This document shows positions 11,223 to 64,000 of a DNA stretch of 64,000 nucleotides, in pieces (positions within the stretch are counted from its first letter, which is position 1; each line of letters begins with the position of its first letter). The DNA comes from Patescibacteria group bacterium. Lineage in GTDB: Bacteria > Patescibacteriota > Microgenomatia > UBA8517. The DNA is taken from assembly GCA_022562395.1 (NCBI GenBank), contig JADFPI010000001.1:1456-65455 (forward strand). Reading direction: 5' to 3'. A model generated the notes under the pieces. The model worked only from the letters and a program-made list of their open reading frames with translations, did not search any database and was not told the origin of the DNA. A program made the translations under genes and the position numbers.

Positions 11223-11930
11223 ATGAAAAAGATGGTTCTTTGGAAAACTGCCAGTCTAGTTTCTTTGATTTTGGGATTTTTTTTATTGGCTTCGGTTGTT
11301 GTTCCCATAATTTCATACGAGAGCGCTTCTCGCGAAAAGTACCCCGATCTCTTGAGCCCTATTGTCGCAAATAAACCCGTCCCCAAGCTTGAGTCCTTTG
11401 ATTATACTCGGGCGAGTAATTGGTTTATTGATGATTTGCCCACGGAAGAATTTATTTCTTCCAATATTTCTTACTATACTTTTTCTATCCCGAAGTTGGG
11501 AATAGAAAATGCCAGGGTCAATATAGGCGGAGAGGATTTGTCAAAGAGCCTTATTCAATATCCCGGAACTGCCCGCCCGGGTAAAGAAGGAAATACTGTA
11601 GTTTTTGGACACTCAATCCTTCCGCAGTTTTTTAATCCAAAAAACTACATTGCAATATTTTCTACATTGCCTGATTTGGAAAAAGGAGACGCAATAAATA
11701 TCGAATATGATGGAATTTCTTATACCTATATAGTTCAGGATATGTTTGAGGTGCTACCGACGGACCTTTATGTATTGGACCAAGGACAGAATGATTCTTA
11801 CCTATCAGTGATAACTTGTGTTCCTCCAGGACACCCTCTTAAGCCAAGAAGATTAGTGGTTAGAGCTAGAATTGTTCCTTTTGAAGCTTCGAGGCTTTCT
11901 CAACAGATAAATGCGGATATTAGGAATTGA
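11223..11930 (+). CDS. sortase (transpeptidase)
   Basis: N-terminal signal-anchor, GNTVVFGHS (His), LSVITCVPPG (TLxTC-type Cys) and RLVVRAR (Arg). Confidence 0.8.
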   Translation: MKKMVLWKTASLVSLILGFFLLASVVVPIISYESASREKYPDLLSPIVANKPVPKLESFDYTRASNWFIDDLPTEEFISSNISYYTFSIPKLGIENARVNIGGEDLSKSLIQYPGTARPGKEGNTVVFGHSILPQFFNPKNYIAIFSTLPDLEKGDAINIEYDGISYTYIVQDMFEVLPTDLYVLDQGQNDSYLSVITCVPPGHPLKPRRLVVRARIVPFEASRLSQQINADIRN

Positions 11931-42507: not shown

Positions 42508-42606
42508 AATCCAAAATCCAAATGTCAAAATCCAAAATGTTTTGAACATTCGGAAATTTGAACTTAGATATTGTTTGGAAATTGGAAATTGAGAATTGGA
42601 AATTCT
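42508..42606. repeat. AAATCCAAAAT-type and GGAAATTG tandem repeats plus the 21-mer ttagatattgtttggaaattg upstream of rpsI
   Basis: ggaaattggaaattgagaattggaaattc at 42577-42605. Confidence 0.7.
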
Positions 42607-42625
42607 CGACCAAAAGGAGAGTAAA

Positions 42626-43036
42626 GTGGTGAGAAAAAAGAAGAAAAATTACACTTATAGTGTAGGCCGAAGAAGAACGGCTTCTGCTCGTGTGCGCCTT
42701 TTCAGAGGAAAAGGCGAAAATATTGTTAACGATAAGCCGTTTGGGAAATATTTTCCCGGTACTGTTAATAAAATAGCCTGGGAAAGACCTTTCAAAATAA
42801 CCGATACAGAAGGAAAGTATTATGTAACAGTGAAAGTTGTCGGCGGCGGTAAAAACGGGCAACTTGGTGCAGTGGTGCATGGGGTGGCAAGGACCTTGGC
42901 CAAAGTCGACAAGGAAAAATTCAGACATCCTCTTAAAAAAGCGGGCCTTCTAACTCGCGACGCCAGGATTCGCGAGCGCCGTAAAGTCGGCACCGGCGGT
43001 AAAGCAAGAAGAAAGAAGCAATCTCCGAAGAGGTAG
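42626..43036 (+). CDS. rpsI: 30S ribosomal protein S9
   Basis: Family match. GTG start chosen 6 nt after the SD AAGGAG; track ORF 42596 begins inside the repeat and is rejected. Confidence 0.9.
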   Translation: MVRKKKKNYTYSVGRRRTASARVRLFRGKGENIVNDKPFGKYFPGTVNKIAWERPFKITDTEGKYYVTVKVVGGGKNGQLGAVVHGVARTLAKVDKEKFRHPLKKAGLLTRDARIRERRKVGTGGKARRKKQSPKR

Positions 43037-43038
43037 CG

Positions 43039-44706
43039 TTATTCCTCTATCCTCGACCAAAAGATATACACTTCGGATTCGTCGGGGCGCAAAACCCGGC
43101 GAAGGATTTCGACATCTTCTCTGTCTTTTAAATTACTTTCCGTTGCACATCCTTCTGCGTCAACAACCAGTAATCTTTTTACTTCCGGTTTTTCGAAAGC
43201 GTCGCGTGAGGGACAGCGCTGGCCGGTAAAAACGAAATTCTCATGCGTCCAGACCCCCTGTTCTCGCGCAATGGCGTCTTGGTTAAAAATCCTAGGGTCA
43301 CGGCCGGTGAAAAAGGCAATCCAAGGGTAGGGGTCGTCCGGAATATTTGTCAAAATAATTTTGTCATAGTTATCTTGCACCTCATTTAATAAAAGTGCCA
43401 ATTCTTTTGCACCAACATTTCTATAGAGGGGAAGGTGAATCTTGTTGTGGACGAAATACATGTGCAAGAAAAATATTAAGTTAAAAGTTAAAAGTAAAAA
43501 TGCAAAAATCACGACACTTTTTCCTTTTTTAGTTAAGCTGTGAAGAAACCCGATTCCGTAAGCAGCGATAATGCTTATAAATGGGAGCATGAATAAAGCT
43601 CGGTGGAGGTTGGGCGCATCTTCCGTTGTCATGGCAGCAGGAATTGGGGCAAGCAGTAGAAGCAAAAGGGGTAAAGCGCTGTTTTTTCGTTGTGCTATTG
43701 TGACTAATCCTAAGACGAAAAGTAGTGCCCCGACATAGGTCAAAAGCCCCACCCCGACTGTTTGGTAGCGGGTTGGTTTTGGAGTCGTATCTTCTAAGAA
43801 AAAATTGGAGCTGAAATATTTTGCATATTCATTAATAAAATGCCTTGCGTAAACCGAGGGTTTGTTGTGAAACAAGCGGGCGATAAATACTTTGTTTGGC
43901 CCTTCTTCAAAAGGCATTCTTGAAAGTTCATACTGTACGTCTAAATCAGAAAATATTGACACTTGAGAAAAGCGACCCCGGGCCTCTTTGTTTTGAATAA
44001 AGAGAAGAGTAATTATAAATAGTACTCCGAGTACTCCCAAAATGACTTTCTTAATTTTTGTTTTTGAAATTATTTTCCATGAATAGAGAATTATTGCCGC
44101 TATAAAGATTGGAGCTAGCACTCTTACCGTGTGATAAAAGAAATAACTTGTGGCTACAAGCGCTATTGAAGCTAGAGCATGTTTTAGTTTCTGCTCATTT
44201 AGTAATCTCAAAAAAAAGTAAAGCCCAAAAAGTGCCAGAAAAAGTGCAACTACTACTTCGCTCGTTGCCCGACTGACGGAAATGTGCCAGGGAGAAACAG
44301 CCAGTAGCGCGCCTGCTGTAACGGCTAATGGCCAATGGTTAATGTTTGACTTTTTCTTTTTAGCTAACTCCTTAACAAAAAGATAAAGGGGAATGACAGT
44401 CAGGGCTCCGAAAAGGGCAGATGGGAAACGGACGGCGAACTCGTTAGTTCCAAAAACGGCAATCGAGGGAATAGTTAAATAAAAAATTCCAGTTGGCCGG
44501 AAGTCCCCGAAGGTGTTGTAGTAAAGAGCAAATTTATTTCCGCGGTCGTCCTTTCCAGTTTTCAAAATCGAGTATGCATTCCAGCCCACCCTAACTTCGT
44601 CTGCATGAAAGCCAAAAGGAAAGGTTGAGAGGCGATAGGTTCTTAGAAAAAAGGCAAGAAGAAAAACCAGCAAAAGAATTTTTACCTGACGACTAAGCTT
44701 AAACAT
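43039..44706 (-). CDS. GT39/GT83-type (PMT/ArnT-family) integral-membrane glycosyltransferase
   Basis: About 12 TM helices, a first-loop DE motif in FHADEVRVGWNAYSIL, and a C-terminal soluble domain. Confidence 0.75.
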   Translation of the reverse strand: MFKLSRQVKILLLVFLLAFFLRTYRLSTFPFGFHADEVRVGWNAYSILKTGKDDRGNKFALYYNTFGDFRPTGIFYLTIPSIAVFGTNEFAVRFPSALFGALTVIPLYLFVKELAKKKKSNINHWPLAVTAGALLAVSPWHISVSRATSEVVVALFLALFGLYFFLRLLNEQKLKHALASIALVATSYFFYHTVRVLAPIFIAAIILYSWKIISKTKIKKVILGVLGVLFIITLLFIQNKEARGRFSQVSIFSDLDVQYELSRMPFEEGPNKVFIARLFHNKPSVYARHFINEYAKYFSSNFFLEDTTPKPTRYQTVGVGLLTYVGALLFVLGLVTIAQRKNSALPLLLLLLAPIPAAMTTEDAPNLHRALFMLPFISIIAAYGIGFLHSLTKKGKSVVIFAFLLLTFNLIFFLHMYFVHNKIHLPLYRNVGAKELALLLNEVQDNYDKIILTNIPDDPYPWIAFFTGRDPRIFNQDAIAREQGVWTHENFVFTGQRCPSRDAFEKPEVKRLLVVDAEGCATESNLKDREDVEILRRVLRPDESEVYIFWSRIEE

Positions 44707-44749
44707 TTGTCTAGGCCATTTTAATCTATTGAAAAAGTTTTTACACCTT

Positions 44750-44778
44750 TTTGACGATAAGTCTTCTGGGTGCGATAC
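44750..44778 (+). promoter_or_regulatory. Promoter TTGACG-N17-GATACT for the dockerin-enzyme operon
   Basis: -35 at 44750-44755 and -10 at 44773-44778. The GTG start of the first gene lies 11 nt downstream. Confidence 0.45.
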
Positions 44779-44788
44779 TTAAGATAAA

Positions 44789-46498
44789 GTGAGAAAGATA
44801 GCTTTACTTTTCTTCTTGACTGGCGTTTTTGCTATTGGCGCCCTACGTGCCGAGGTGGTTTATGGCGCGGGAAAGGGCTCTTTGACCAACCTTGGAGGGA
44901 TGTGGGGTTGGACTGGGACGAACGAGGCGTTTGTACCGCAGCTAGTTATGTACGCTGACGTGCCGCGTTACTACAATAATCCTGGAAAGATTGATGCAGA
45001 TATTCAGACATTCATCAAAGGACACGGCTTCAGTGGTTTCCATGTAGGAGTCGCTTGCCGCTGGTTTGATTTGAATGAGAAGGATTGTCGCAATATTTCA
45101 GGAAGTAACCCCTTGCCAGACCAGAGGACAATTGATGCCTTAAAAATGCTTATTCAAAAAACTCATGCGGCTGGTGGTATGGTCCACATTTGGATGTGGG
45201 GGGACGCAGAACGCGGGCAAAATCCTTCAGTCAGAAGCGATTGGGGCGGTCTTATGGGGAGTGTTGACAAGCGCCTTCAGGACAAAATTGCCCAGGAATT
45301 GGGGTCGCTGGACGGTTGGAGCATGGGCTACGGGTTTGACCTTGATGAATGGGTAGGGGCAAGTAAGTTAAAGCAGTGGCGGGATTATCTCCAAGGGAGA
45401 CTTCCGAAGTTTCATTTTCTCGGCGGTCGACCGGCAGGACCTAATTCTGGCACAAACCACTCGGCTTTTGTTTCTTGGAATAAGCCGATGGACTACTCAA
45501 GTTACGAACATCACCGACCAACTTACAACGTCTATGTCGCCGCGCTTAGCGCGGTCTCCGGACAGCCGGTGATGTCCGAAGATCGCTTCCGCGTCCGTAG
45601 TGGCGGTCGTTCTAAAGACTACAATTTGGACGATACACGACGAGGCCTTTGGACTTCTACACTGGCGGGGGGAGTTGCAAACATCTGGGGGTACCTGAAA
45701 GACGGCGGCTCCCATGATGCCGGCTCGGCGCCTTATCCAAATAAAAACCAGATCAAAACTTATTCGCGCTTTTTTGAGGACAGGTTTAAAAAAGATATGA
45801 GTAGGTGTGGCAGTTTAACAAGTGGAGGTGCAAGGTGTTTGAAACGTTCAAATAACCGGGATTATGTTTTTTATAGAGAGAGTACTTCGTCCATCCAGAT
45901 GGATTTATCGGGAATGAGCGGTTCACAACCTGCCGTAGCCGTTGATACTAAAAAGACATATGGCGAGATTGACCTAGGTGCATTACAAGCAAAAAACCAG
46001 ACCTGGAATGCGCCGTATTCTTCCGACTGGGCCATTGCAGTCGGAAGTTTTGGTGGTGTCGTTCCTCCACCCTCGCTCACGCCTACTCCGACCGGGCAAG
46101 TTTCACCAACTCCTCCTTCTGATGGTTGGATTTTCTGTGTAAATGAACACGGATTCTGCTCATTCTCCGGAACCAAAGAGGTTAGGTACGGTGCTAACGG
46201 TTTCTATCGCTATCTAGTTTTGTCAAACGGTACCGACTGCACTAATGCGGTTTTTGGCGATCCAATTAAGGGAGTATTTAAGCAATGCCACTACAGGGAT
46301 GTTACTACCGTTTCGCCTTCTCCTATACCTAAACAAGGGGATATTGATAATGATGGAGATGTTGATATATTCGATTACAATATCCTTATTGAAAACTTTG
46401 GCAGCACTAATTGCGGTAATGTAGCCGACATTAACGGAGACTGTAAAGTAGATATTTTTGACTACAACATATTAGTTGAAAACTTCGGTGCGACTTAG
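44789..46498 (+). CDS. secreted protein with a C-terminal dockerin-like module (N-terminal putative glycoside-hydrolase-like domain + Cys-rich beta domain)
   Basis: Signal peptide MRKIALLFFLTGVFAIGALRA. The C-terminus is GDIDNDGDVDIFDYNILIENFG...CGNVADINGDCKVDIFDYNILVENFG, two EF-hand-like Ca loops. Confidence 0.75.
   Translation: MRKIALLFFLTGVFAIGALRAEVVYGAGKGSLTNLGGMWGWTGTNEAFVPQLVMYADVPRYYNNPGKIDADIQTFIKGHGFSGFHVGVACRWFDLNEKDCRNISGSNPLPDQRTIDALKMLIQKTHAAGGMVHIWMWGDAERGQNPSVRSDWGGLMGSVDKRLQDKIAQELGSLDGWSMGYGFDLDEWVGASKLKQWRDYLQGRLPKFHFLGGRPAGPNSGTNHSAFVSWNKPMDYSSYEHHRPTYNVYVAALSAVSGQPVMSEDRFRVRSGGRSKDYNLDDTRRGLWTSTLAGGVANIWGYLKDGGSHDAGSAPYPNKNQIKTYSRFFEDRFKKDMSRCGSLTSGGARCLKRSNNRDYVFYRESTSSIQMDLSGMSGSQPAVAVDTKKTYGEIDLGALQAKNQTWNAPYSSDWAIAVGSFGGVVPPPSLTPTPTGQVSPTPPSDGWIFCVNEHGFCSFSGTKEVRYGANGFYRYLVLSNGTDCTNAVFGDPIKGVFKQCHYRDVTTVSPSPIPKQGDIDNDGDVDIFDYNILIENFGSTNCGNVADINGDCKVDIFDYNILVENFGAT
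46334..46495 (+). repeat. dockerin-like module 1 (approximate bounds)
   Basis: DxDxDGDVDIFDYNxLxENFG x2 with a CGN...GxC pair. Confidence 0.75.
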
Positions 46499-46535
46499 AG
46501 ATGAAATCTTTTAAATTTGCTACCATGTAGGTGGC

Positions 46536-48023
46536 ATGAAGAGGTATTTGTTTTTCTTTCCCCTTCCATTTTTTTTGCTTGCATTTGCTTCTTATGTTCA
46601 GGCGCAGACGATTTGCAAGGTTGGCAATGCGACGGGGAATGATACTGCCAAAATTCAGGCTGCAATTAACTCCTGTGCTGGGGGTGGTGAGGTAAAGTTA
46701 AGTTCGGGCAAAACTTATACTGCGGGGACAATTGTGCTTAAAAGCGGCGTTACGCTGAATTTAAACGGCGCGATACTTGAAACCAGTGCAAAGGAAAGTG
46801 ATTTTCAAAGCATTAGTAACGATACGACCCGGATTACATTTGTGGGAGCTGATAAGGGTACCGCCAATGTGGTCATCGTGGGGCCAGGGATGATAAAAAA
46901 ATCATCCCAATCGGATTTCGAGATTGCCTTTTTGCGTTTTGTGGGAAATACCAATCTCACGTTGAAAAATTTTGAAGTGAACTCTTTATCCGCGCCTCCA
47001 ACCGCGGGGGGATTTCACATTACGCTTGATGATAGCGACGGCGTATTGCTCGATGAGATTACTGTACGAGGCAGGCGAGGAGGGGGACAGGTGTGGGGAA
47101 ATGATGGCATTGATGTTCGCTCTCGCAATGTCACAATTAGGAATTGTGATGTGAATACGCACGATGACGGGATTGTAATTGCAACCCCAGAGAAGTACCC
47201 GAAAGGTGTAAGTAACGTTACGGTGGAAAATTGCCGTGTCTCAAGCGATTCTTCCGCTCTTAAGTTTGGGACCGGCACCCACCATGATATTAACAATGTC
47301 ACATTTGACAAGATAACGATTTACGATGGAGCGGGGATCCGTTTTTCCGTATATGATGGTGCAGAATTGAGTAATGTAATATTTTCGAATATTACATACG
47401 AATCGAATATGAATTATCTTTTTGCGTGTGGCGGGGGCGCGAGTGGCCTCGGAATCATGAAAGATTGCGCAGGCCCTGTTGATCGTGACGGCGATGGTAT
47501 TAAAGAGACAGCCGGAGGGTATATTCGTGACATTGTGTTTGAAGATTTTGACATTTTTGATATAGGTAGCAGGAATGCTCACGGTGAGGCATCGCTTAAT
47601 ACTATGGACCGCGTGACGTTTAAAAATATCCGTTTTCATTCCGGATCCGGTTCTCCGCCTCTCGCTCGCTTTCGAAATATCTGTGGGTTGTCCATTTCGA
47701 ATATTACTTACCCCCACCCTACGATTGCCAATCCGCAAAATGATCTGAATATAGAAGTAAGCGTTACGAACGTCCGCTATGACGGCGGTGCCCCCGTCTG
47801 CGGTGGTGCTCTGCCCACTTCGACTTCTACGCCCACAAAAGAGCCGTCTCCGATGCCAACCGGTGGAGATTTAGACTCCGACGGTGATGTAGATATTTTT
47901 GATTACAACGCTCTAGTTGAGAATTTTGGAGCTAGTGTCTGCGGGAATATCGCCGACATTGACGGGAACTGTAAAGTAGATATTTTTGACTACAATATTC
48001 TGGTAGAGAATTTCGGGCGATAA
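46536..48023 (+). CDS. secreted right-handed beta-helix glycoside hydrolase/lyase (GH28-like motifs) with a C-terminal dockerin-like module
   Basis: Signal peptide; GNDGIDVRSRNVTIRNCDVNTHDDGIVIA resembles the GH28 NTDG/DD motifs; ST-rich linker; dockerin. Confidence 0.7.
   Translation: MKRYLFFFPLPFFLLAFASYVQAQTICKVGNATGNDTAKIQAAINSCAGGGEVKLSSGKTYTAGTIVLKSGVTLNLNGAILETSAKESDFQSISNDTTRITFVGADKGTANVVIVGPGMIKKSSQSDFEIAFLRFVGNTNLTLKNFEVNSLSAPPTAGGFHITLDDSDGVLLDEITVRGRRGGGQVWGNDGIDVRSRNVTIRNCDVNTHDDGIVIATPEKYPKGVSNVTVENCRVSSDSSALKFGTGTHHDINNVTFDKITIYDGAGIRFSVYDGAELSNVIFSNITYESNMNYLFACGGGASGLGIMKDCAGPVDRDGDGIKETAGGYIRDIVFEDFDIFDIGSRNAHGEASLNTMDRVTFKNIRFHSGSGSPPLARFRNICGLSISNITYPHPTIANPQNDLNIEVSVTNVRYDGGAPVCGGALPTSTSTPTKEPSPMPTGGDLDSDGDVDIFDYNALVENFGASVCGNIADIDGNCKVDIFDYNILVENFGR
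47862..48020 (+). repeat. dockerin-like module 2 (approx.)
   Basis: GGDLDSDGDVDIFDYNALVENFGASVCGNIADIDGNCKVDIFDYNILVENFG. Confidence 0.75.
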
Positions 48024-48053
48024 TTAATTACTCTCACATTTTCTTCTGATAGA

Positions 48054-49508
48054 ATGGGTTCAGTGCCTATTAACCTCAAACCCTTCTTTATTATTGTTAT
48101 TGGTGGCCTGCTATTTATATTCATTTCTTTATTTAAAACTTATAGCTTTACTTATGCAGCTACCCCGGAGCTTAAATGGAGCGAAGGTTTTGAAGGAAGC
48201 AAGACCGGGGGTACTCATAGTAGCGGTTGTGGAAATCAAGAATATATTAAAGGGAACCCCGGACTGGCTCATTCTGGTGGGGGAGTTCACATGTCCGAAG
48301 CTACTCAAGATCCGTGTAGTTCCGCGATTCGCTATTACCCAACTTGGGATGGCAACATCCCGCTTCCAGTTCTGGTGATGTTTTGGATGAAAACAGATGT
48401 TCCGGGTTACCCGGGAATATCAAAAACCCAAGCTTATAAAATCATTGGTGGGGATAGATTCAGCCCTTTGACGGTTAAAGAGCGGACCGATAAGGGGAAA
48501 AGTTATCAGTGCGTCGCCAGTGTTTGCAATGGTGGCTTTCGTGCAGGTAAATCTTGCTCAAAAAATGGTGAATGTCCCAATAATGCCCTTCTAATGACTA
48601 CTCACATTCGCAGTGATGGGACCTTTGATATTGGCCACGTTCTAATGACCTTCCGCTCCACCAGTATCAAAGCTCCAATTAATGAGTGGTTTTTGCACAG
48701 TGCCTATATTGAAAATGTTGGTAGTGGTTCAAACTTAAAAACTTGGGTGACTATTTATATGAATGAAAAGGAAGTCTCCCGTGGTTACACTTACGAAACA
48801 GAAAATAAACCTTGGACCGGAGCAGCCAAGCATTGGCACATGGGTTGGTATGGTGACCGAAATGGCAATAGTGGACCTTTTAAAATCTACAACGACGATA
48901 TGAAATTTTACGATGTATCGAGCCAGAATGAGGCTGAATCGATTATTGCCAATGAGATTGGTGGAAGCCCGCCGCCGACCTCGCCACCCGGTACGCCAAC
49001 GCCGACGAAAAAACCGACATCTACTCCAGGTGTACCAACGCCTACTCCAACAACTCCGTCCGACCCAAGTGCTAAGTTTAAGATTGGTGATCGAGTCGAA
49101 ACAACGGAAACGGCCAATGTCAGAGAAAGTCCAGGAGAAGGATTAATTGGTACTCAACCTCCTGGTGTTTCCGGAACAGTCGTTGGTGGTCCAGGATTGG
49201 GTGTAGGAGGTGATCATTGGTGGTGGGTGATTGACTACGACACAGGGACTGACGGCTGGAGCCGAGAAGACCTGCTCAAAAAAATAGCGTCAGCTCCATC
49301 TCCTACACTAACTTCAACGCGGACGCCTACACCTTCCCCGAGTATTCCCGGAGATTTGGATAACGACAACGATGTAGATATTTTCGACTACAATACACTT
49401 TTAGAGAATTTTGGAAATACAAACTGCGGAAATGTAGCCGACATCGACGGAAATTGCAAAGTAGATATCTTTGACTACAATATCCTTTTGGAGAACTTTG
49501 GTTTATGA
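48054..49508 (+). CDS. secreted jelly-roll (ConA-like) domain protein + SH3b-like domain + C-terminal dockerin-like module
   Basis: Signal-anchor; PT-rich linkers; SH3b-like KFKIGDRVETTETANVRESPGEGLIGTQPPGVSGTVVGGP...WWWVIDYDTGTDGWSREDLL; dockerin. Confidence 0.7.
   Translation: MGSVPINLKPFFIIVIGGLLFIFISLFKTYSFTYAATPELKWSEGFEGSKTGGTHSSGCGNQEYIKGNPGLAHSGGGVHMSEATQDPCSSAIRYYPTWDGNIPLPVLVMFWMKTDVPGYPGISKTQAYKIIGGDRFSPLTVKERTDKGKSYQCVASVCNGGFRAGKSCSKNGECPNNALLMTTHIRSDGTFDIGHVLMTFRSTSIKAPINEWFLHSAYIENVGSGSNLKTWVTIYMNEKEVSRGYTYETENKPWTGAAKHWHMGWYGDRNGNSGPFKIYNDDMKFYDVSSQNEAESIIANEIGGSPPPTSPPGTPTPTKKPTSTPGVPTPTPTTPSDPSAKFKIGDRVETTETANVRESPGEGLIGTQPPGVSGTVVGGPGLGVGGDHWWWVIDYDTGTDGWSREDLLKKIASAPSPTLTSTRTPTPSPSIPGDLDNDNDVDIFDYNTLLENFGNTNCGNVADIDGNCKVDIFDYNILLENFGL
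49350..49505 (+). repeat. dockerin-like module 3 (approx.)
   Basis: PGDLDNDNDVDIFDYNTLLENFGNTNCGNVADIDGNCKVDIFDYNILLENFG. Confidence 0.75.
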
Positions 49509-50887
49509 CAAAAGTACGTTTACTATTGGCAGTTTTGGCTTTTCTAACCAGTGCTTTTATTAGTCTCTCTGCTCCGGCAGGATCGTTAGCCGCAAAACTT
49601 ATTTTCAATAGCGGTTTTGAAGCGGATTCTCAGATTACAGGGGGATACGCGGATATATCAGGCACAGATCGTTCTGTTTCGTCTCCCAATAATTGGGATA
49701 ATGCCTGGGATTTTCATTTCAATTACAACGGGGGTAACGGTAGCACAAGGAAGGCTGAGATCGTAGACGATCCAGCAGGAGGGAATAACAAAGTACTTCG
49801 TTTATGGTTGAGGGATGCATATGGTGGCTCGGTACGCTCAACTTCGCGAATCCGACGGCTAGGCAGGACGGAGTGGTTCAGCCGAAGGAGAGTCTATGTA
49901 GACCCGGATTTCTTGTTACTCTCGAATTATACAGGATCCTCAAGGGTCATGTTTGAGGAGATCAAAGTTACACAAACCAAGACGAGTCCAAGCTTTCGCA
50001 TTACCGCGGCCTGGGGTGATATAGCCCGAGGGGTGTCTTGGGATATTGAGGCCGAAGACTTGAGAGCTTCTGGTCCAGCATTTTGGACTTGTACGTCAAG
50101 AACTAGCGTTCCAATCGGCGAGTGGTTTACGCTTGAGACATATTACAGGGCGGGAGACGCGAAAAACGGCCGCTATGTCCTTACCTTCCAAAGGGACGGC
50201 GGGTCTAAACAGACGATTTGTGACGTAACCAACTGGACGTATCATCCCGACATGGGGCCATCCTCTCCATGGACCTACAATCCCATGAAACTCTATATGT
50301 CTCGAGGAGATGACGTGGATTGGATTCGAAACAACGGCGGGGTAGCGCAACTCTATTTTGACGACTGGGAGGTGTGGTCTACAATGCCGGATGGAGAAAT
50401 CCCACCTTTAACTTCAACTTTAAAACCGACCCCTACTATTAGTAAGATCCCCGGAGGAAAATTTAAAGTAGGCGATCGGGTGGAAGTGACTGTTACAGCC
50501 AATGTGAAGTTGACCGCAGGACAAGGATTAAGAGGTACTCAGCCTCCGGGTGCAAGGGGAACCGTCCTTGGCGGACCCGAGATTGGGATAGGAGGTCAGA
50601 ATTGGTGGTGGGAGATTGATTATGATTCTTGGCCTGATGGTTGGAGCCGAGAAGATTTACTTGAAAAGGTTGGTGGTCCAACCTCAACGCCGACACCAAC
50701 TCCTGCAAAAGTTCCAGTTCCTGGCGATATAGATGGCGATGGTGATGTTGATATTTTTGACTACAACATTCTTGTCGCAGAGTTTGGAAGTACAGATTGC
50801 GGCAGAGTGGCAGATATTAATGGCGATTGTAAAGTTGATATTTTTGACTACAATTCTCTGGTTGAAAATTTTGGGAGAACAGTATGA
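49505..50887 (+). CDS. secreted polysaccharide-lyase/glycanase-like jelly-roll protein (PL7-like YYRAG motif) + SH3b-like domain + dockerin-like module
   Basis: Signal peptide. RTEWFSRRRVY and YYRAGDAKNGRYVLTFQ resemble the PL7 RxELR / YFKAG motifs (weak). SH3b-like KFKVGDRVEVTVTANVKLTAGQGLRG...; dockerin. Confidence 0.65.
   Translation: MTKVRLLLAVLAFLTSAFISLSAPAGSLAAKLIFNSGFEADSQITGGYADISGTDRSVSSPNNWDNAWDFHFNYNGGNGSTRKAEIVDDPAGGNNKVLRLWLRDAYGGSVRSTSRIRRLGRTEWFSRRRVYVDPDFLLLSNYTGSSRVMFEEIKVTQTKTSPSFRITAAWGDIARGVSWDIEAEDLRASGPAFWTCTSRTSVPIGEWFTLETYYRAGDAKNGRYVLTFQRDGGSKQTICDVTNWTYHPDMGPSSPWTYNPMKLYMSRGDDVDWIRNNGGVAQLYFDDWEVWSTMPDGEIPPLTSTLKPTPTISKIPGGKFKVGDRVEVTVTANVKLTAGQGLRGTQPPGARGTVLGGPEIGIGGQNWWWEIDYDSWPDGWSREDLLEKVGGPTSTPTPTPAKVPVPGDIDGDGDVDIFDYNILVAEFGSTDCGRVADINGDCKVDIFDYNSLVENFGRTV
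50723..50884 (+). repeat. dockerin-like module 4 (approx.)
   Basis: PGDIDGDGDVDIFDYNILVAEFGSTDCGRVADINGDCKVDIFDYNSLVENFG. Confidence 0.75.
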
Positions 50888-52357
50888 GGAAACTTTTTTT
50901 CGCCTCCTTCTTAACTATATTTATCCTTGCACTTCACTTAAATAAAGTAGACGCACAGACTGTATGTAATGTCGGCAGTGCGACTGGCAATGATACCCAA
51001 AAAATTCAAAATGCTATTGATTCCTGTGCTGGGGGTGGCGAGGCAAAGTTAAGTTCGGGCGAGACTTATACTGCGGGGACAATTGTGCTTAAAAGTGGAG
51101 TAACGCTCAATTTAAATAGCTCAACCATTCAGGCCTCTGATAACGAGAATGACTTTATTTCTTGTAAAGAGGGAAGCACTCGAAATTTTTTCATATGCAC
51201 GAGGGCCAAAACGGACAGTGTGGTCATTACTGGACCGGGGGCTTTAACTAAGACTCCGGGGAGCAAGGTTGACCATTCAATGGTGGAATTTTGGAACTCG
51301 AGCAACTTAACCGTAAGGAACTTAACTATTGATACTACCATGGCAGACAAAACGGTTAGTGGTTTTCACCTGAACACCGCTGCCAGCAATAATATTTTGT
51401 TTGAGAGCATTACTGTGCGCGGTGGTCGGGCAGGAGGACAGGTATGGGGCAACGATGGTATCCACCTCCAGGGTTCACAGAACGTTACTGTCAGAAATTG
51501 CGATATTAGTACCCACGATGACGGAATTCCTATCCCCGCTTCATCAGGTGAAGGGGCGCGGAACGTGTTAGTTGAGGATTGTGTTGTATCAAGCGACTCT
51601 AGCGCACTTAAGTTCGGTACGGGCTCCAGTGATAAATGGGACGGTATAACATTCAGGAACATAACGATAAAGAACACTAACGTTGCAATTGGCTTTGCTG
51701 TTTATGATGGAGGTGAGGTAAGCAATGTAATCTACGACAATATAACTGTTGAGTCAGATGTAAAAGTATTGTTTGCCTGCGGCGGCGGCGCTGCAGGCTT
51801 AGGTGGCATGAAAGACTGTGCCGGGCCGGTGGATAGGGACGGAGACGGAGTTAAAGAGACTCCCGGGGGATATATTCATGATGTAACTTTTCAAAACTTC
51901 GAAATCTTCGGCGGCGGCAGTTCGACATCGCACGGTGAAGCTTCGCTAAATACAATGGATAGAGTGACTTTGAAAAATATTAATTTCCACGAAGGTTCTG
52001 GAACGGCCCCGCTGGCATGGTTCAGGGATATATGTGGGCTTTCAATTTCTGGTTTCACCTCGCACTTAACAGGCGACCCGACTAAGGATATGCAAATTGA
52101 TTCGAAGTGTTACCAATTTAAGGCTGGATGGCGGTACGCCAAACTGTGGGGGTGCCGGTTCTACTCCCACTCCTACTTCCAAACCTCCTCTTACAGGAGA
52201 TTTAGACGGCGATAACGATGTTGATATTTTTGACTACAATATCCTTGTTACAAATTTCGGACAGGCTGGGGAAAACCTAGCAGACATTGATGGTAACGGC
52301 GATGTAGATGTCTTTGACTACAACATACTTCTTGAGAATTTTGGTAAGATACCGTAG
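50884..52357 (+). pseudogene. second GH28-like beta-helix + dockerin gene, split by a +1 frameshift near 52104-52110 (track ORFs 50884..52215 and 52097..52357)
   Basis: Paralog of 46536..48023. Frame 1 ends DMQIDSKCYQ.... Frame 2 continues SVTNLRLDGGTPNCGG...dockerin, matching the paralog's SVTNVRYDGGAPVCGG. This is a real pseudogene or a homopolymer error. Confidence 0.6.
52199..52354 (+). repeat. dockerin-like module 5 (lacks the Cys pair: QAGENLADIDGNGDVDVFDYNILLENFG)
   Basis: GDLDGDNDVDIFDYNILVTNFG...ADIDGNGDVDVFDYNILLENFG. Confidence 0.7.
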
Positions 52358-52464
52358 AACGGTTTGTCCATCAGGAATCATCCTCTTGCCACAAAATACT
52401 TTTCCATCATTCGTTTATCTTGAGAAAGAGGTGTTTAAGAGTGTAGAGTCTAAGAGAGGGCAAA

Positions 52465-54480
52465 ATGAAATTTAGCCGTAATTTACTTCCTTTTTTTCTT
52501 GCCGTCTTTTTCCTATCGAGCCTCTTTCCTTTTAGAGCACTAGCCCAGACCGGAGGAGTAGGAGCTGATGGCAAAACCTTTGAAGAGCGCAAAAAAGACT
52601 GGCTTAACTTTGTTCCACAGCCAAGCTCTGAGATGGACATGACGACGCGTCGACGCTACCTTTTTAGTTGGCTAGAGAAGGGTATATATAACAATGTTGT
52701 TTCCGAGTCAATTCAAGACTTTGTCGGTGGTTATTGGCTGGGTGGTATCAGGGCCCAGGGTGGATATGCGGTTATGATATTAAAAAAATATGGCCAGAAG
52801 GGTTCAGGGCTAATTAGCTCAAATGACGAGAGCAAAATCAAGAACAGGTATAGGCGCTCGATAGAAAACAGCGGTTTTTTCGGACATCTCAATCCAAACA
52901 AGCAGGTATATGCAATGGTTGGGACATATCTTTATACACATTACTACGAGAATAGCTTGCAGTTTCCAGTTTACGGTTACCCCACGTCCCAAGACCCAAG
53001 CAATTTACCCTCCTACTACCAAGATCAGTGGCCGACCTTTTCCTATGGCGGGCGTACCTACAAGTTCGGAAGCGGACCATACAATGCCCAGCAACTTTCA
53101 AGGGACTGGTTGCTGTGGGCTTTTGATAAATGGTATGTTGGCAAATCTCCTTCTAAGGGGCCTCGTGAGTTTGATTCCATCGACTATGCTCGAGCCTTTC
53201 CTGGCGCGACTGCTTTGCTTTGGAGTCTTGCACCCAACTCTGACCAAGCAATTAAGACTCGTGCCAAGATGGCGACGGACCTGCTTCTTCTTGACTCGGT
53301 TCTCGATTTCTCGGCCAATTCATGGGGTGGAACTATGAGCCGCGCAGATTACTACTGGATGGGTCGCTCTCCAATTTTTCCAATGCACATCTATTGGGGA
53401 ATGGGAGAAGACACCGACAGGTTTGACGTGCGTGTTCTCTACCAGGTTGGGTATGTCCCTCCTGATGTAATAATTGACGCTGGGGTTCTAACCGACGAGG
53501 CTGATAACTATTGGTACTGGCACACAGAACATCAGGCTAATGGGTTACTTAATCAGTGGGAGTTTGGCAAATGGAACTTTGTTACCAAAAATTACAATAT
53601 TGGCTCGAATGTAGGATGGGGAAAGAGGGGTTGGCAGGTTAATGTAAAAGGTCCTGGAAGAAAAGCGTTTATCAGATTATGGGTTAATCAGGATGACACA
53701 GAGCCTGTGTCAACCAGCGAAGGCAGCCATATGGGCAACAAAGGGAGGCAGTTTCGTAATGCAATTTTTGCAGATGTTGGCTCTCAACCCTTTTTGTGGG
53801 AAAAAAGAGTTAAGACTGATTGGGACAAAGATGAAATTGATAGCGGGATACAATGCTCAAATGTCGCCTCAAGCACCTGGCGCTGTAGCGGTAGCGGATG
53901 GATTTTTAGAAAGAAAGATAAATCCATGGTGGCCATTTCTCTTGGCGCAAAAACCGCCTCAGCCGAGGTGGCAACAGAAGGTGTAGAGTATTCTAATTGG
54001 AATGCTTTCAAAGGCGCAGTAAGGGCAAACGCTTCTTTAACAACAGGCTCTTACACGACATCTCAAGGTTCAACTATTGGTAAAGAGGACTATTGTGGCC
54101 TAAATGCACCCGGAGATTGCCAGTTTCCCTTTGAGCGAATGAACACACAAGACTTTCGAGGAAATAAGATTGTTGAATGGCTCGCTGGTGACAAAATGAG
54201 AGTTTCTCTTCGTGGTAAAACTTGCACTTACGACTTTAGTAAATGGACTTATTCAGGAAGCTGTGGGGAGAAAGTCCCTGGCCCAACAGATACTCCAACT
54301 CCTACGCCATCCAAAGTAGAAGGCGACCTTGATGGTGACGGTGATGTTGATATTTTTGATTACAACTTTTTGATTGAGAACTTTGGCGATGCTAAGTGTG
54401 GTAATGAAGCAGATATAGACGGAAATTGCAAGGTAGACATATTTGATTACAATATTCTGGTAGAGAATTTCGGTAAATGA
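52465..54480 (+). CDS. secreted protein of unknown function (about 600-aa N-terminal domain) with a C-terminal dockerin-like module
   Basis: Signal peptide, PT linker and dockerin EGDLDGDGDVDIFDYNFLIENFGDAKCGNEADIDGNCKVDIFDYNILVENFG. Confidence 0.7.
   Translation: MKFSRNLLPFFLAVFFLSSLFPFRALAQTGGVGADGKTFEERKKDWLNFVPQPSSEMDMTTRRRYLFSWLEKGIYNNVVSESIQDFVGGYWLGGIRAQGGYAVMILKKYGQKGSGLISSNDESKIKNRYRRSIENSGFFGHLNPNKQVYAMVGTYLYTHYYENSLQFPVYGYPTSQDPSNLPSYYQDQWPTFSYGGRTYKFGSGPYNAQQLSRDWLLWAFDKWYVGKSPSKGPREFDSIDYARAFPGATALLWSLAPNSDQAIKTRAKMATDLLLLDSVLDFSANSWGGTMSRADYYWMGRSPIFPMHIYWGMGEDTDRFDVRVLYQVGYVPPDVIIDAGVLTDEADNYWYWHTEHQANGLLNQWEFGKWNFVTKNYNIGSNVGWGKRGWQVNVKGPGRKAFIRLWVNQDDTEPVSTSEGSHMGNKGRQFRNAIFADVGSQPFLWEKRVKTDWDKDEIDSGIQCSNVASSTWRCSGSGWIFRKKDKSMVAISLGAKTASAEVATEGVEYSNWNAFKGAVRANASLTTGSYTTSQGSTIGKEDYCGLNAPGDCQFPFERMNTQDFRGNKIVEWLAGDKMRVSLRGKTCTYDFSKWTYSGSCGEKVPGPTDTPTPTPSKVEGDLDGDGDVDIFDYNFLIENFGDAKCGNEADIDGNCKVDIFDYNILVENFGK
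54322..54477 (+). repeat. dockerin-like module 6 (approx.)
   Basis: See the CDS. Confidence 0.75.
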
Positions 54481-54560
54481 TTATGGCCCTAATTCATAGC
54501 TTGCCCTGAGCTTGTCGAAGGGTTGAAAACTTTGGTAAAAATTAGCCGTTACTTTAACAG

Positions 54561-54592
54561 TTGACAAAACTAGCGCTTTTCATGACTATAAA
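54561..54592 (+). promoter_or_regulatory. Candidate promoter (TTGACA ... CTATAAAT) for the cohesin operon
   Basis: TTGACA at 54561-54566. The -10 is either GACTAT with a 17-nt spacer or TATAAA with a 20-nt spacer. Confidence 0.35.
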
Positions 54593-54634
54593 TACAGTTA
54601 TCTTATTTGGATTTGCAGTCTTAAAGATATTCGT

Positions 54635-54676
54635 ACCCGCCTGCAAAAGCTATCGCTTAAGCGATTGCGGGCAGGT
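54635..54676. promoter_or_regulatory. Nested inverted repeat with a perfect 14-bp palindrome ATCGCTTAAGCGAT (operator-like) upstream of the cohesin operon
   Basis: Palindrome at 54652-54665, flanked by imperfect arms ACCCGCCTGCAA / TTGCGGGCAGGT. Confidence 0.5.
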
Positions 54677-54776
54677 ATACCCAAAATGTTATTTTTAAAA
54701 CTGTAAACTAAAGTATTTTGAGTATATAGGGGTTGAGGAGACCTCAAATTTCGCATACAATTAAAAAGGACGATTA

Positions 54777-55991
54777 ATGCCAGACACAAGTTCAAATTCG
54801 GGGGAGGGTTTATCAAGATTGCTTTCTAGTAAAAAAGACTTATCCCCATTGGTTTTGGTTTTTATTCTTCTTCTCGGTATAGTAGTCGGAGTTTTTTTGA
54901 TTCAGTTCAGGCAAGAGCTTCGAAGGCGCGCAGCGGTAGCCGGAGTGGATTTCTCGCTTGTTCCCAGTAAAACCACCGTTTCTCCAAATGAGAAGTTTAC
55001 GGTAGATATTGTGATGAATACTAACGAATTTAGCGTCTCGGCTACAGAAATCCACGTTGCCTTTGACGCAAATTATCTTGAGGCTGAAAGTATTCAAGAA
55101 AGCGGCTTTTTGCCGGTTGTTTTGCCGCCTGGGCCACAAGTTGGCAGTGGTACGGCCTCAATTATTTTAGGAAGCTTGCCTTCTGACCCAAAGAAGGGAA
55201 CTGGTACGGTAGCCACGATTAATTTCAAGGCGCTTAAAGCATCAGGTGGGCCAACCGAGATTCGCTTTGATTCAGGCACTCAAACTGCCGCACTTGGAAA
55301 TGCCGGGGATGTAACCAGAAATCTCAGCCCAACCAGCGTAACTGTTCAAGGTGTGGTTGCTCCAACTCCGACGAAAACGCCAACGCCGACAAAGAAACCA
55401 ACAGCAACTCCTACGTCCAAACCTGCGCCGACTTCTACTCCCACTCCCAAAGCAACGGCTACTCCAACTCCTTTGCCAACTCCGACTCCTCTACCGAGCC
55501 CAACACCGGGTAAAGCAAACCTTGAGTTTAAAGTGAAATTCCAGGGAATTTCCTCTCAAAAATCGGCTAGGCTAGTAAGAGTGATGTTAATGCAAGGGGG
55601 AAGTGAAGTGTATAGGTTTGACGACGTTAGTGTAACCGCTGACCAATCTGGAGTTTACCTGGGTTCAGTTGGAAATATCACGCCAGGTACATACGACGTT
55701 TATATTAAAGGCCCGATTCATCTGCAAAAGAGATTTACCAGTATTTCCATCTCATCGGGTTCAAATAGCCAAGATTGGTCTGGAGTGACTCTTAAAGCGG
55801 GCGACTTTGACGCCAATAACGTTTTGAACATTATCGACATTGCGGGCATGTTGGCGGAGTACACTGCACTTTCTGTCCCTGCCAATCAGTCAAATCAAAA
55901 GTTCGACATCGACGCAAATGGTGTTATAAATATTATTGACGTAGCTTTGGTTTTGACAAACTATACAGCGTTGGAGGTACCAGGAGACTAA
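54777..55991 (+). CDS. membrane-anchored adaptor scaffoldin-like protein: N-terminal TM, cohesin-like domain, PT linker, beta-sandwich domain, C-terminal dockerin of a second sequence type
   Basis: TM LVLVFILLLGIVVGVFLI. Cohesin-like FSLVPSKTTVSPNEKFTVDIVMNTNEFSVSATEIHVAFDANYLE...GTVATINFKALKASGGPTEIRFD. (TPTP)n linker. Dockerin DFDANNVLNIIDIAGML...DIDANGVINIIDVALVLTNY. Confidence 0.7.
   Translation: MPDTSSNSGEGLSRLLSSKKDLSPLVLVFILLLGIVVGVFLIQFRQELRRRAAVAGVDFSLVPSKTTVSPNEKFTVDIVMNTNEFSVSATEIHVAFDANYLEAESIQESGFLPVVLPPGPQVGSGTASIILGSLPSDPKKGTGTVATINFKALKASGGPTEIRFDSGTQTAALGNAGDVTRNLSPTSVTVQGVVAPTPTKTPTPTKKPTATPTSKPAPTSTPTPKATATPTPLPTPTPLPSPTPGKANLEFKVKFQGISSQKSARLVRVMLMQGGSEVYRFDDVSVTADQSGVYLGSVGNITPGTYDVYIKGPIHLQKRFTSISISSGSNSQDWSGVTLKAGDFDANNVLNIIDIAGMLAEYTALSVPANQSNQKFDIDANGVINIIDVALVLTNYTALEVPGD
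54939..55347 (+). repeat. cohesin-like domain 1 (approx.)
   Basis: See the CDS. Confidence 0.6.
55800..55988 (+). repeat. type-2 dockerin-like module (DxDANxVxNIIDxAxxL x2)
   Basis: Its sequence differs from the six enzyme dockerins. Confidence 0.65.
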
Positions 55992-56597
55992 ATGAAAAAC
56001 CTGTCCCAAAAAAATAGGTTGCTGCTTGCTTTCGTAATTGGAGGTGTAGGGATATTAATTGGAGTTTCCTTGGGCAATTATTTTGTAAAGGGAAGAGGCC
56101 CGAGTCCAACGCCCGAGGTTACAACAGCGCCTTCAAAAAGTAGGGCAACCCTTTCTTTCTATCCCGAGGAAACAGAGGTTGACGTGGGTGATGAATTTAG
56201 CGTTGAGATTAGGCTAAATGCTGAAGGCTTAGTTCTTTCCGGATTAGCGGTAAGGATGGTTTACGAATACGAGGGCGATTTGCCGCTTGAGCCCCAGGAT
56301 GTAAAGATGAGAGTCAATCCAGCGCTAGCTGGAATGGATTGGGTGTTTCCAGTAAATACGATAGAGGTTGATGAGAGGAACAAAAGAGTCGTCGCAGAGC
56401 TGGCCGCAGTCAATTTAAACCCCGGAGGATATCCGGCCGAAGGCTCAGTCACTTTTGCGACTATTGATTTTAATGCTGAAAGCTCAAGCAGTAACGACTT
56501 GGCCTTTACTTTTGACGCTGAAAACACGAAATTACTTACCAAAGATGGACGAGAGGTGGAGATAGAACTAGTCGAGAGGCTGTACAGCGTAGATTAA
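55992..56597 (+). CDS. membrane-anchored cohesin-like domain protein (201 aa)
   Basis: N-terminal TM LLLAFVIGGVGILIGVSL. Cohesin-like LSFYPEETEVDVGDEFSVEIRLNAEGLVLSGLAVRMVYEYEGDL...GSVTFATIDFNAESS. Its start abuts the stop of the previous gene. Confidence 0.65.
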   Translation: MKNLSQKNRLLLAFVIGGVGILIGVSLGNYFVKGRGPSPTPEVTTAPSKSRATLSFYPEETEVDVGDEFSVEIRLNAEGLVLSGLAVRMVYEYEGDLPLEPQDVKMRVNPALAGMDWVFPVNTIEVDERNKRVVAELAAVNLNPGGYPAEGSVTFATIDFNAESSSSNDLAFTFDAENTKLLTKDGREVEIELVERLYSVD

Positions 56598-56646
56598 AAT
56601 TACGCAGTTGACGGGTCGCAACATTCGTCTCTATGATTAAAATACT

Positions 56647-57558
56647 ATGGCAGTAAAACCAACCGTTAAAACAATTCTTGCAATTTTGGTAATTTTAGTG
56701 CTGGTAATAAGCATTCCAGTTGCCGTGTTTTTGATAAGACAGCGGCAGGAGATTAGGGAGAAAGCTGCAGTTCCCACTGGACAGGCAACCGTATCCCTAT
56801 CACCGACGAGTGCAACTTACGATGTTGGGCAGTCGTTTAGTGTTAGCGTTTCTTTTAATACGGCAAATATAGCGATATCAGCAGTCGCGGTCAGGCTAAC
56901 TTATCCCTACTCTGGAACAACACCGGAACTTACAGCCTCCGATATTCAAATAAATCCGTCACTATTGGCGACAGGAAGCTGGAGCTGTCCGGTTAAAACG
57001 ATTACCCCTTCAAGCGGAACGGTTCAAATAGATATAGCCTGTGTAAACACCGATATTAATGGATATACCTCGGCAACCGATACACAACTGGCGTCATTTA
57101 GCGTGGTTGCCAACCAAGTTCCAGCAACCAACCCAACCACTTTGAGGTTCGACCCGAATTTGAGTGTTATTACCCAAAAATCAGACGGGCAAGACGTCCT
57201 TTTGATTCCCACAAGCACTGGTTCTTATACAATTTCCGGAGGTGCAGGTCCAACTCCAACCCCAACTCCAACTCCAACGCCCACCCCGACAAGTGGTATA
57301 GGCGGTGGGGCAACCGCAACTCCAACCCCCACTCTCACAGAAGACGAGCAAGATTTGACACCAACCCCCACTCCTAGCCCAACCCCTACGGGAGGCACTG
57401 GCGGTGGGGCAACCGCAACACCAACCCCCACTCCGACAGAAATTGAGGAGCTTCTAGACTCGGGGGTATCAACGCCTACTTTACTGGCCGCATTTGTAGG
57501 ATTTTTGCTGCTTCTTGTTAGCGCTGGAACCTTCTCAGTGGTATTTTTGAGAAAGTAG
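56647..57558 (+). CDS. cohesin-like domain protein with an N-terminal TM, a (PTPT)n linker and a C-terminal hydrophobic anchor
   Basis: TM ILAILVILVLVISIPVAVFLI. Cohesin-like VSLSPTSATYDVGQSFSVSVSFNTANIAISAVAVRLTYPY...TQLASFSVVANQV. GPTPTPTPTPTPTPTSG linkers. C-terminal LLAAFVGFLLLLVSAGTFSVVFLRK. Confidence 0.65.
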   Translation: MAVKPTVKTILAILVILVLVISIPVAVFLIRQRQEIREKAAVPTGQATVSLSPTSATYDVGQSFSVSVSFNTANIAISAVAVRLTYPYSGTTPELTASDIQINPSLLATGSWSCPVKTITPSSGTVQIDIACVNTDINGYTSATDTQLASFSVVANQVPATNPTTLRFDPNLSVITQKSDGQDVLLIPTSTGSYTISGGAGPTPTPTPTPTPTPTSGIGGGATATPTPTLTEDEQDLTPTPTPSPTPTGGTGGGATATPTPTPTEIEELLDSGVSTPTLLAAFVGFLLLLVSAGTFSVVFLRK

Positions 57559-63133: not shown

Positions 63134-64000
63134 ATGGCAAGAAAGAAGAAAAAGGAAGTTAAGAAACCAGAGCCTCAAAAAGATGCATCAGCTAAACTTC
63201 AAGCAATAAAACTTGCCATGGAACAGATTGAAAAGCAGTACGGCAAGGGTTCTATTATGCGCCTTGGAGCAAAAACTGACGGGAGACTTAAGATTAGCGT
63301 TATCCCCACTGGGTCAATTGCGCTTGATTTGGCTTTGGGGGTTGGGGGATTGCCTCGAGGGCGTATTGTTGAAATTTATGGGCCGGAAGCCTCGGGAAAG
63401 ACTACTCTGGCGCTGTCAGTTATCGCCGAGGCTCAAAAAGCTGGGGGGCAAGCAGCCTTTGTAGATGCTGAGCACGCAGTTGACGCTACTTGGGCAGAGA
63501 TTGTTGGAGTTAATTTAGACGACCTTCTTTTATCTCAACCTGACACAGGAGAGCAAGCTTTGGAGATAACGGAGACGCTGATTCGTTCCGGTGCACTAGA
63601 TGTAATTGTTGTCGACTCGGTTGCGGCACTTGTCCCACGGGCTGAGCTTGAAGGTGAAATGGGAGATGCGGTTATGGGAATGCAGGCGAGGCTTATGAGT
63701 CAGGCATTGAGAAAGTTAACTGGTGCAATTTCAAAGTCTAGGACTATTCTGGTATTTACTAATCAAATAAGGATGAAAATTGGAGTGATGTTTGGAAATC
63801 CGGAAACTACTTCGGGAGGACTGGCTCTTAAGTTTTATTCTTCGGTCAGGCTTGATGTCAGGCGAATAGAGATATTAAAAGATGGAGAGGTCGCAATCGG
63901 CTCAAGACACAGAGTGCGAGTTGTTAAGAATAAGGTTGCGCCTCCTTTGAGGGTTGCGGAGCTTGACATTATGGCCGATGAGGGAATTTCAAAGGCAGGG
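63134..64000 (+). CDS. recA: recombinase RecA, 5' partial (runs off window end)
   Basis: Manual translation gives [45 protein letters not shown]...[17 protein letters not shown]...[19 protein letters not shown]. Absent from the ORF track because there is no stop within the window. Confidence 0.9.

Follow-up and report, generated by a model that had tools for sequence, protein, structure and literature searches.

The analysis presented here concerns the gene for an integral-membrane glycosyltransferase (GT) of a Patescibacteria group bacterium, located at positions 43039 to 44706 of a 64,000-nucleotide stretch of contig JADFPI010000001.1 (assembly GCA_022562395.1) that we refer to as the window. 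The gene lies beside a cluster encoding dockerin- and cohesin-bearing secreted proteins rich in Pro/Thr (PT) linkers, and an initial annotation had proposed that the GT glycosylates these linkers. Our comparison across genomes makes it probable that the GT is a core, vertically inherited envelope glycosyltransferase of the Microgenomates with a GT-C_A fold, and that its adjacency to the cluster reflects a variable island rather than a dedicated enzyme-substrate partnership. As a housekeeping gene it is widespread in the Microgenomates (Woesebacteria, Blackburnbacteria and relatives), its product is a member of a large, well-conserved and biochemically uncharacterised PMT_2/GT-C_A subfamily that is core to this group, and its placement next to the cluster, a local accident in a single lineage, provides no evidence for linker glycosylation. 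The case separates an inference of guilt by adjacency from what comparative genomics supports; nothing about the GT itself would surprise a specialist.

Gene order around the glycosyltransferase

The features that define the neighbourhood are as follows.

43039..44706, minus strand: GT gene, a 555-aa open reading frame (ORF) with an ATG start, encoding a PMT_2-type integral-membrane glycosyltransferase with a GT-C_A fold.
42596..43036, plus strand: rpsI (ribosomal protein S9), last gene of the ribosomal-protein/rpoA operon, convergent with the GT gene.
44707..44788, no strand: 82-bp divergent intergenic spacer from the GT start to the first dockerin gene.
44789..57558, plus strand: dockerin/cohesin cluster of nine genes for PT-linker-rich secreted proteins.
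63188..64000, plus strand: recA, running off the window end; the conserved upstream neighbour of the GT gene in relatives.

Orthologous GT loci were collected by exact-protein look-ups, a scan of species-representative genomes and a metagenome scan with an orthologue alignment, and were annotated with a local script based on BLAST and hidden Markov models (HMMs); 79 distinct loci remained after removal of duplicates and of the window's own strain. Across this set it is rpsI and recA, rather than the cluster, that anchor the GT gene. In the window, a gene run on the plus strand that extends to 43036 (rpoB/C, fusA, tuf, the ribosomal-protein superoperon, secY, rpoA, rplQ, rplM and rpsI) meets the GT gene tail to tail, with the two stop codons 2 bp apart (43036-43041). 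The same orientation is usual elsewhere: of the 65 loci whose flank is long enough, 28 have rpsI within 5 kb downstream of the GT gene and 18 have it within 300 bp. In many Woesebacteria (L001, L007, L033, L037, L049, L098) the convergent stops are 1-3 bp apart, too close for each gene to have a terminator of its own, and the rpsI/GT junction of the window showed no terminator-like hairpin. On the other side, recA is found upstream in 24 of the 79 loci, at 79-5,518 bp. The interval between the GT gene and recA, 0.08-5.5 kb in these relatives, is 18.5 kb in the window, where it holds the dockerin/cohesin cluster followed by genes for TauE, an M3 peptidase, a GDSL hydrolase and a NUDIX protein; a NUDIX gene also stands between recA and the GT gene in L001 and L035. 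Since both anchors are conserved and only the interval is longer here, the cluster occupies a variable island.

Co-occurrence with the cluster is nearly absent. Homologues of the nine cluster proteins were found in a single locus (1/79; L022) and in none of the 54 loci whose upstream flank reaches 2 kb or more, and an HMM made from the window's seven dockerins returned no match in the 79 loci, hitting only the window's own strain (L021). Co-occurrence with cohesin/dockerin clusters in related genomes, which the initial annotation had put forward as a check on its proposal, is thus not borne out. The exceptional locus L022 (assembly GCA_964362165.1) belongs to the nearest relative, whose GT is 77% identical, and carries a gene like that at 52465, split in two, divergently upstream. 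Within the window, the GT gene and the first cluster gene diverge across the 82-bp spacer and so do not form one operon. The spacer contains one sigma-70-like match (plus strand, 44751-44779), no more than expected by chance, and scans for promoters and terminators around the GT gene gave counts not above those of shuffled sequence. In one Woesebacteria lineage (L005:11731-15138; also L018 and L045) a 1,135-aa secreted protein with fn3, LysM and CarboxypepD_reg domains is encoded between the GT gene and rpsI, another sign that the flanks of the GT gene accept insertions of surface-protein genes on both sides.

The genes of the cluster itself are the following.

44789, 48054 and 49505, plus strand: dockerin-bearing genes, with dockerin type I matches or clear repeats.
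46536..48023, plus strand: GH28/pectate-lyase-like dockerin gene, an intact paralogue of 50884.
50884..52215, plus strand: frameshifted GH28-like gene, its PT linker and dockerin continuing in the +1 frame at 52070..52357.
52465-54480, plus strand: dockerin gene of 671 aa, its catalytic domain without a Pfam family.
54777, plus strand: cohesin and dockerin gene, with a Pfam cohesin, a PT linker of ~50 aa and a dockerin.
55992 and 56647, plus strand: genes for cohesin-like, N-terminally anchored proteins.

The earlier observation that the neighbouring proteins all carry PT linkers holds: eight of the nine contain a P/T/S-rich run directly, and in the ninth, 50884, an apparent frameshift near ~52095 is followed in the +1 frame by a PT linker that starts at 52157 and by a complete dockerin at 52196..52354, which marks the gene as a pseudogene or its break as an assembly error. 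Outside the cluster, no PT run occurs in the 64-kb window except in one spurious antisense ORF. Three tandem cohesin-type proteins (54777-57558) each carry an N-terminal transmembrane (TM) anchor; the proteins of 55992 and 56647 share 31% identity, and the latter has a C-terminal hydrophobic tail and then RK. The dockerin of 54777 (DFDANNVLNIIDIAG...DIDANGVINIIDVAL) differs from the six near-identical enzyme dockerins (GDxDGDGDVDIFDYNxLVENFG). This layout resembles a two-tier cellulosome, in which enzyme dockerins would bind a scaffold cohesin and the scaffold dockerin an anchoring cohesin. For the cluster cohesin, 5.8 billion proteins yielded 5 homologues, all on contigs shorter than 2 kb; the catalytic domain of 52465 has 19. 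Genes like 52465 are present in two long contigs from outside the Candidate Phyla Radiation (CPR), L106:8001-9830 and L107:5442-7241, within exopolysaccharide-type clusters, where a heparinase II/III-like gene comes directly downstream of them and genes for Phosphodiest, GT4, Wzx, GT2 with DUF2304, and polysaccharide deacetylase lie nearby. This setting suggests that the catalytic domain is a polysaccharide-acting enzyme. A PMT_2 gene lies 6 kb from the 52465-like gene in L106; we rejected it as evidence of linkage, its product showing no relationship to the GT of the window (BLASTP E 0.44; hhalign probability 0.65%). The dockerin/cohesin island is a rarer and more unusual feature of the region than the GT, and is to be judged alone, without an assumed linked glycosylation system. 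Elsewhere in the window, a sortase gene (11223..11930) is immediately preceded by a 747-aa ORF (8977-11220) with a weak Baseplate_J-like Pfam match (E 5e-4), whose product may be a sortase substrate or surface protein.

Sequence, fold and family placement

The GT matches Pfam PMT_2 (PF13231) over residues 71-232 with E 1.4e-11 and 45.3 bits, above the gathering cut-off of 26.1, and an identical protein appears in public databases under the name 'glycosyltransferase family 39 protein [Patescibacteria group bacterium]' (P0001). The chain contains about 12-13 TM helices, and its C-terminal part (residues ~430-555) forms an extracytoplasmic alpha/beta domain. Sequence searches returned 772+ homologues, with full-length orthologues at 47-80% identity, the closest in Woesebacteria, Blackburnbacteria and Microgenomates; the family comprises 9,538 clusters at 50% identity at E<=1e-3 and 1,657 at E<=1e-30. 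An alignment of 50 orthologues at 47-81% identity contains 59 invariant positions. These include H34, D36 and E37 of a loop-1 motif, H34-A-D36-E37, that follows directly on TM1; D53, D54, D68, R70, R146, E150, H192, R195, R245, E362, D363, N366, R369, H420 and R429 in predicted extracytoplasmic loops; and C498 and C520 of the C-terminal domain. As read from the sequence, K3, R6 and K9 stand before TM1, and the positive-inside rule then puts the N-terminus inside the cell and loop 1 outside it. The GT thus presents an acidic motif in its first extracytoplasmic loop, as GT-C_A enzymes do, and these residues would be equivalent to the known catalytic residues.

The AlphaFold2 model of the GT (predicted local distance difference test score, pLDDT, 90.7; predicted template modelling score, pTM, 0.91) comprises a helical membrane core, a long loop at ~240-320 and the C-terminal alpha/beta domain at ~430-555. 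Its strong fold matches are to GT-C_A enzymes only, all users of lipid-linked sugar donors. In a Foldseek search of the PDB, these were STT3/PglB/AglB (E 5e-9 to 1e-7), ArnT (5e-7) and C. thermophilum Pmt4 (6e-6), followed by DPY19, ALG9, EmbC and AftD, with TM-scores all near 0.5. Glycan- and lipid-directed GT-C enzymes (ALG12, ArnT, AftA/D) fit the model equally well, and the C-terminal domain searched alone gave weak and generic fold matches. From these fold matches and the helical arrangement of the predicted structure we regard the assignment to fold class GT-C_A as certain, and no single family within this class stands out.

Placement below the level of the superfamily is not supported by the sequence comparisons. 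No GT-C match to the GT was found at E<=10 among all PDB chains, Pmt1/2/4 included, by phmmer or by hmmsearch with the 50-sequence profile; the only PDB-chain match was a chance one to L44e (E 1.2). NCBIfam models gave sub-threshold matches only, to Agl23 (42 bits against a cut-off of 126) and to the LA_3751 family, while the archaeal STT3 model scored E 0.046 (cut-off 450 bits) and the ArnT equivalog PRK13279 E 0.83 and 8.2 bits (cut-off 567). PMT_2 matches 49 of the 50 orthologues. PF02366 (PMT) matches 33 of them at E<=0.01, weakly (best E 3.9e-13), and gives no match at E<=1 on the window GT itself; as this model also takes in ArnT-type enzymes, it fails to discriminate GT39 from ArnT. The GT39-specific C-terminal four-TM domain PMT_4TMC (PF16192) was found in none of the 50 orthologues, and the MIR domain is absent from the GT. 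Membership in GT39 is not supported, the GT having neither PMT_4TMC nor detectable sequence homology to characterised or solved PMTs, and the 'GT39' on this protein is a database label that trails the PMT_2 match. A GT66 oligosaccharyltransferase (OST) was rejected, as the WWDYG motif and the large C-terminal OST domain are missing and the family models stay below their cut-offs. The GT cannot be placed in GT39 or ArnT/GT83 and belongs to the PMT_2 or 'GT39-83-like' superfamily. The original call of a GT39/ArnT-family enzyme accordingly stands at the level of superfamily and fold, through PMT_2 and the loop-1 Asp-Glu motif, and fails for GT39 or ArnT specifically. The profile classification into PMT, ArnT or GT83 that it had called for gave PMT_2 as its one positive outcome, and the firm assignment to a lipid A transferase that it had named as counter-evidence did not emerge. 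A literature search on CPR/Patescibacteria with dockerin, ArnT or mannosyltransferase returned nothing on the GT's family.

Donor pathway and candidate acceptors

Relatives of the window strain point to a monosaccharide donor. A polyprenyl-carrier gene or a small GT2 gene resembling polyprenyl-phosphate-sugar synthases lies within 4 kb of the GT gene in 22 of the 79 loci. In L001 and L002 a polyprenyl synthase gene on the same strand ends 5 bp before the GT gene, beside a divergent UppS-type cis-prenyltransferase gene, and UppS adjoins the GT gene in six further loci, for a count of 7 loci with an adjacent UppS. The Blackburnbacteria share the order BacA (UppP), TMTC-like gene, 228-aa GT2 and GT (L024:6224-11731; also L014, L060 and L094), a compact glycosylation neighbourhood in which the TMTC-like gene overlaps the GT2 gene and encodes a multi-TM protein whose TM1 is followed by 'FWDDEDNV' and whose C-terminal part carries tetratricopeptide repeats (TPRs). 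The best NCBIfam matches of the 228-aa GT2 are AglJ, PgfS, PpgS, Dol-P-hexose transferase and ArnC, all polyprenyl-phosphate monosaccharide synthases. In L047, L066, L067 and L093, where the GT is less than 50% identical, arrays of 3-6 paralogous GT-C (PMT_2-like) genes are interspersed among GT2 genes, a sign that the GT-C class has undergone large lineage-specific expansions in CPR genomes.

These neighbours support a standard GT-C mechanism for the GT. A small cytoplasmic GT2 would load one sugar onto polyprenyl phosphate, the lipid-linked sugar would be flipped across the membrane, and the GT, its putative Asp36-Glu37 active site facing outside, would transfer the sugar to an extracytoplasmic acceptor. 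The candidates for that acceptor are either a glycopolymer or lipid of the cell envelope, or the Ser/Thr-rich segments that many secreted proteins contain.

Several observations weigh against our interpretation of the GT as a core envelope enzyme that uses such a donor and is linked to the cluster by position alone. Foldseek ranks oligosaccharyltransferases (STT3/PglB/AglB) first, enzymes whose donors are polyprenyl-diphosphate oligosaccharides, and the modelled fold leaves room for a diphosphate-linked donor. All scores of the 228-aa GT2 fall below the NCBIfam equivalog cut-offs. The 64-kb window contains no donor-synthase GT2, flippase or carrier-lipid gene, so that the donor pathway is reconstructed from other genomes. 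Synteny with ribosomal genes is uninformative on the function of the GT. In a composition test for horizontal origin the island does not differ clearly, with a GC content at third codon positions (GC3) of 0.39-0.46 against 0.37-0.43 for the rest of the window, and because cluster and core genes overlap in GC3 it is defined by synteny only. Furthermore, the 52465 homologue of L022 is again divergent from the GT gene, which dates the adjacency to that small clade or earlier.

Among the alternatives, the one that survives best, though we hold it as no more than possible, is that the GT is a general protein O-glycosyltransferase that modifies Ser/Thr in Pro/Thr-rich disordered linkers, the cluster proteins being among its substrates. 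The loop-1 DE motif matches the 'DE motif' reported as required for activity in GT39, and there are GT-C precedents on Ser/Thr-rich linkers: the linker-bearing cellulase CenA of C. fimi is heavily mannosylated by an actinobacterial GT39 in a manner that requires the DE motif (PMC11727336), and streptococcal Ser/Thr-rich disordered regions are glycosylated by GtrB/PgtC2 and PgfS/PgfM1, which protects them from proteolysis (bioRxiv 10.1101/2024.05.05.592596). By analogy with these pairs and with actinobacterial Pmt, O-glycosylation would shield the linkers from proteolysis. The PF02366 matches among the orthologues, the TMTC-like GT-C/TPR gene that adjoins the orthologue of Blackburnbacteria and the status of the GT as a core gene also fit a general system. 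Against this stand the non-discriminating nature of PF02366, the absence of PMT_4TMC and MIR, and the scarcity of potential substrates nearby, with a PT-rich ORF within 5 kb of the GT gene in just 9 of the 79 loci. A broader version of the idea, which we offer more tentatively still, is that this PMT_2 subfamily is the general protein O-glycosyltransferase of Microgenomates/Patescibacteria, forming a new GT-C family outside GT39, GT83 and GT66 that would use a polyprenyl-phosphate sugar and decorate the Pro/Thr-rich linkers of secreted and surface proteins, including those of the cellulosome-like assembly.

Far less probable is a dedicated partnership, in which the GT would be coupled to the cluster through a shared divergent promoter region and would glycosylate its PT linkers specifically, as initially proposed. 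The head-to-head arrangement with the first cluster gene across a spacer of 82 bp, the PT linkers of all nine cluster proteins and their confinement to the cluster within the window, and the recurrence of a cluster-type gene divergently upstream in L022 speak for this reading. The co-occurrence data largely refute it: 78 of the 79 other loci lack a cluster homologue and none has a dockerin match, rpsI and recA rather than the cluster fix the position of the GT gene, the GT family exceeds those of the cohesin (5) and the 52465 domain (19) by orders of magnitude, and homologues of 52465 elsewhere sit in polysaccharide clusters, the PMT_2 gene of L106 being unrelated to the GT. The least probable reading, an ArnT-like lipid A or undecaprenyl-phosphate-4-amino-4-deoxy-L-arabinose transferase, has in its favour the JGI names of several orthologues ('4-amino-4-deoxy-L-arabinose transferase-like') and against it the PRK13279 score given above, the failure of the profile to find a sequence match to ArnT structures, a best structural match other than ArnT, the lack of arn- or lpx-like genes in the 64-kb window, and the general description of Patescibacteria as without lipid A/lipopolysaccharide biosynthesis, which makes such a role unlikely. 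What these estimates leave falls to an envelope glycopolymer or lipid, or another acceptor, reached by the same overall mechanism. The identity of the acceptor would inform how ultrasmall Patescibacteria build and decorate their envelope.

Relation to known glycosyltransferase systems

Compared with the GT39 enzymes, represented by yeast Pmt1/2/4, M. tuberculosis Rv1002c and C. glutamicum Cg_1014, the window GT lacks PMT_4TMC (PF16192) and MIR, has no detectable sequence similarity to the solved Pmt chains and carries instead a C-terminal extracytoplasmic alpha/beta domain of ~125 aa. No ppm1-like gene was seen in the window, and for the GT mannose as the sugar and a protein as the acceptor are putative. 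It differs from STT3/AglB/PglB (GT66) in lacking WWDYG and the large C-terminal OST domain, and the GT2 neighbours of its relatives point to a mono-phosphate, single-sugar donor instead. With ArnT (GT83) and other PMT_2 proteins it has in common the PMT_2 family, a length of ~550 aa, a TM bundle with a small C-terminal periplasmic domain and, probably, a polyprenyl-phosphate monosaccharide donor. The Firmicute pairs GtrB/PgtC2, PgfS/PgfM1 and CsbB/YfhO differ in that their GT-C is of the YfhO family, not PMT_2, and in that the window GT has no adjacent GT2. They resemble the relatives of the GT in placing a small GT2 polyprenyl-phosphate sugar synthase beside a GT-C, PgfS being among the best NCBIfam matches of the GT2 that neighbours the GT in those genomes, and the acceptors known in these pairs include Ser/Thr-rich disordered regions.

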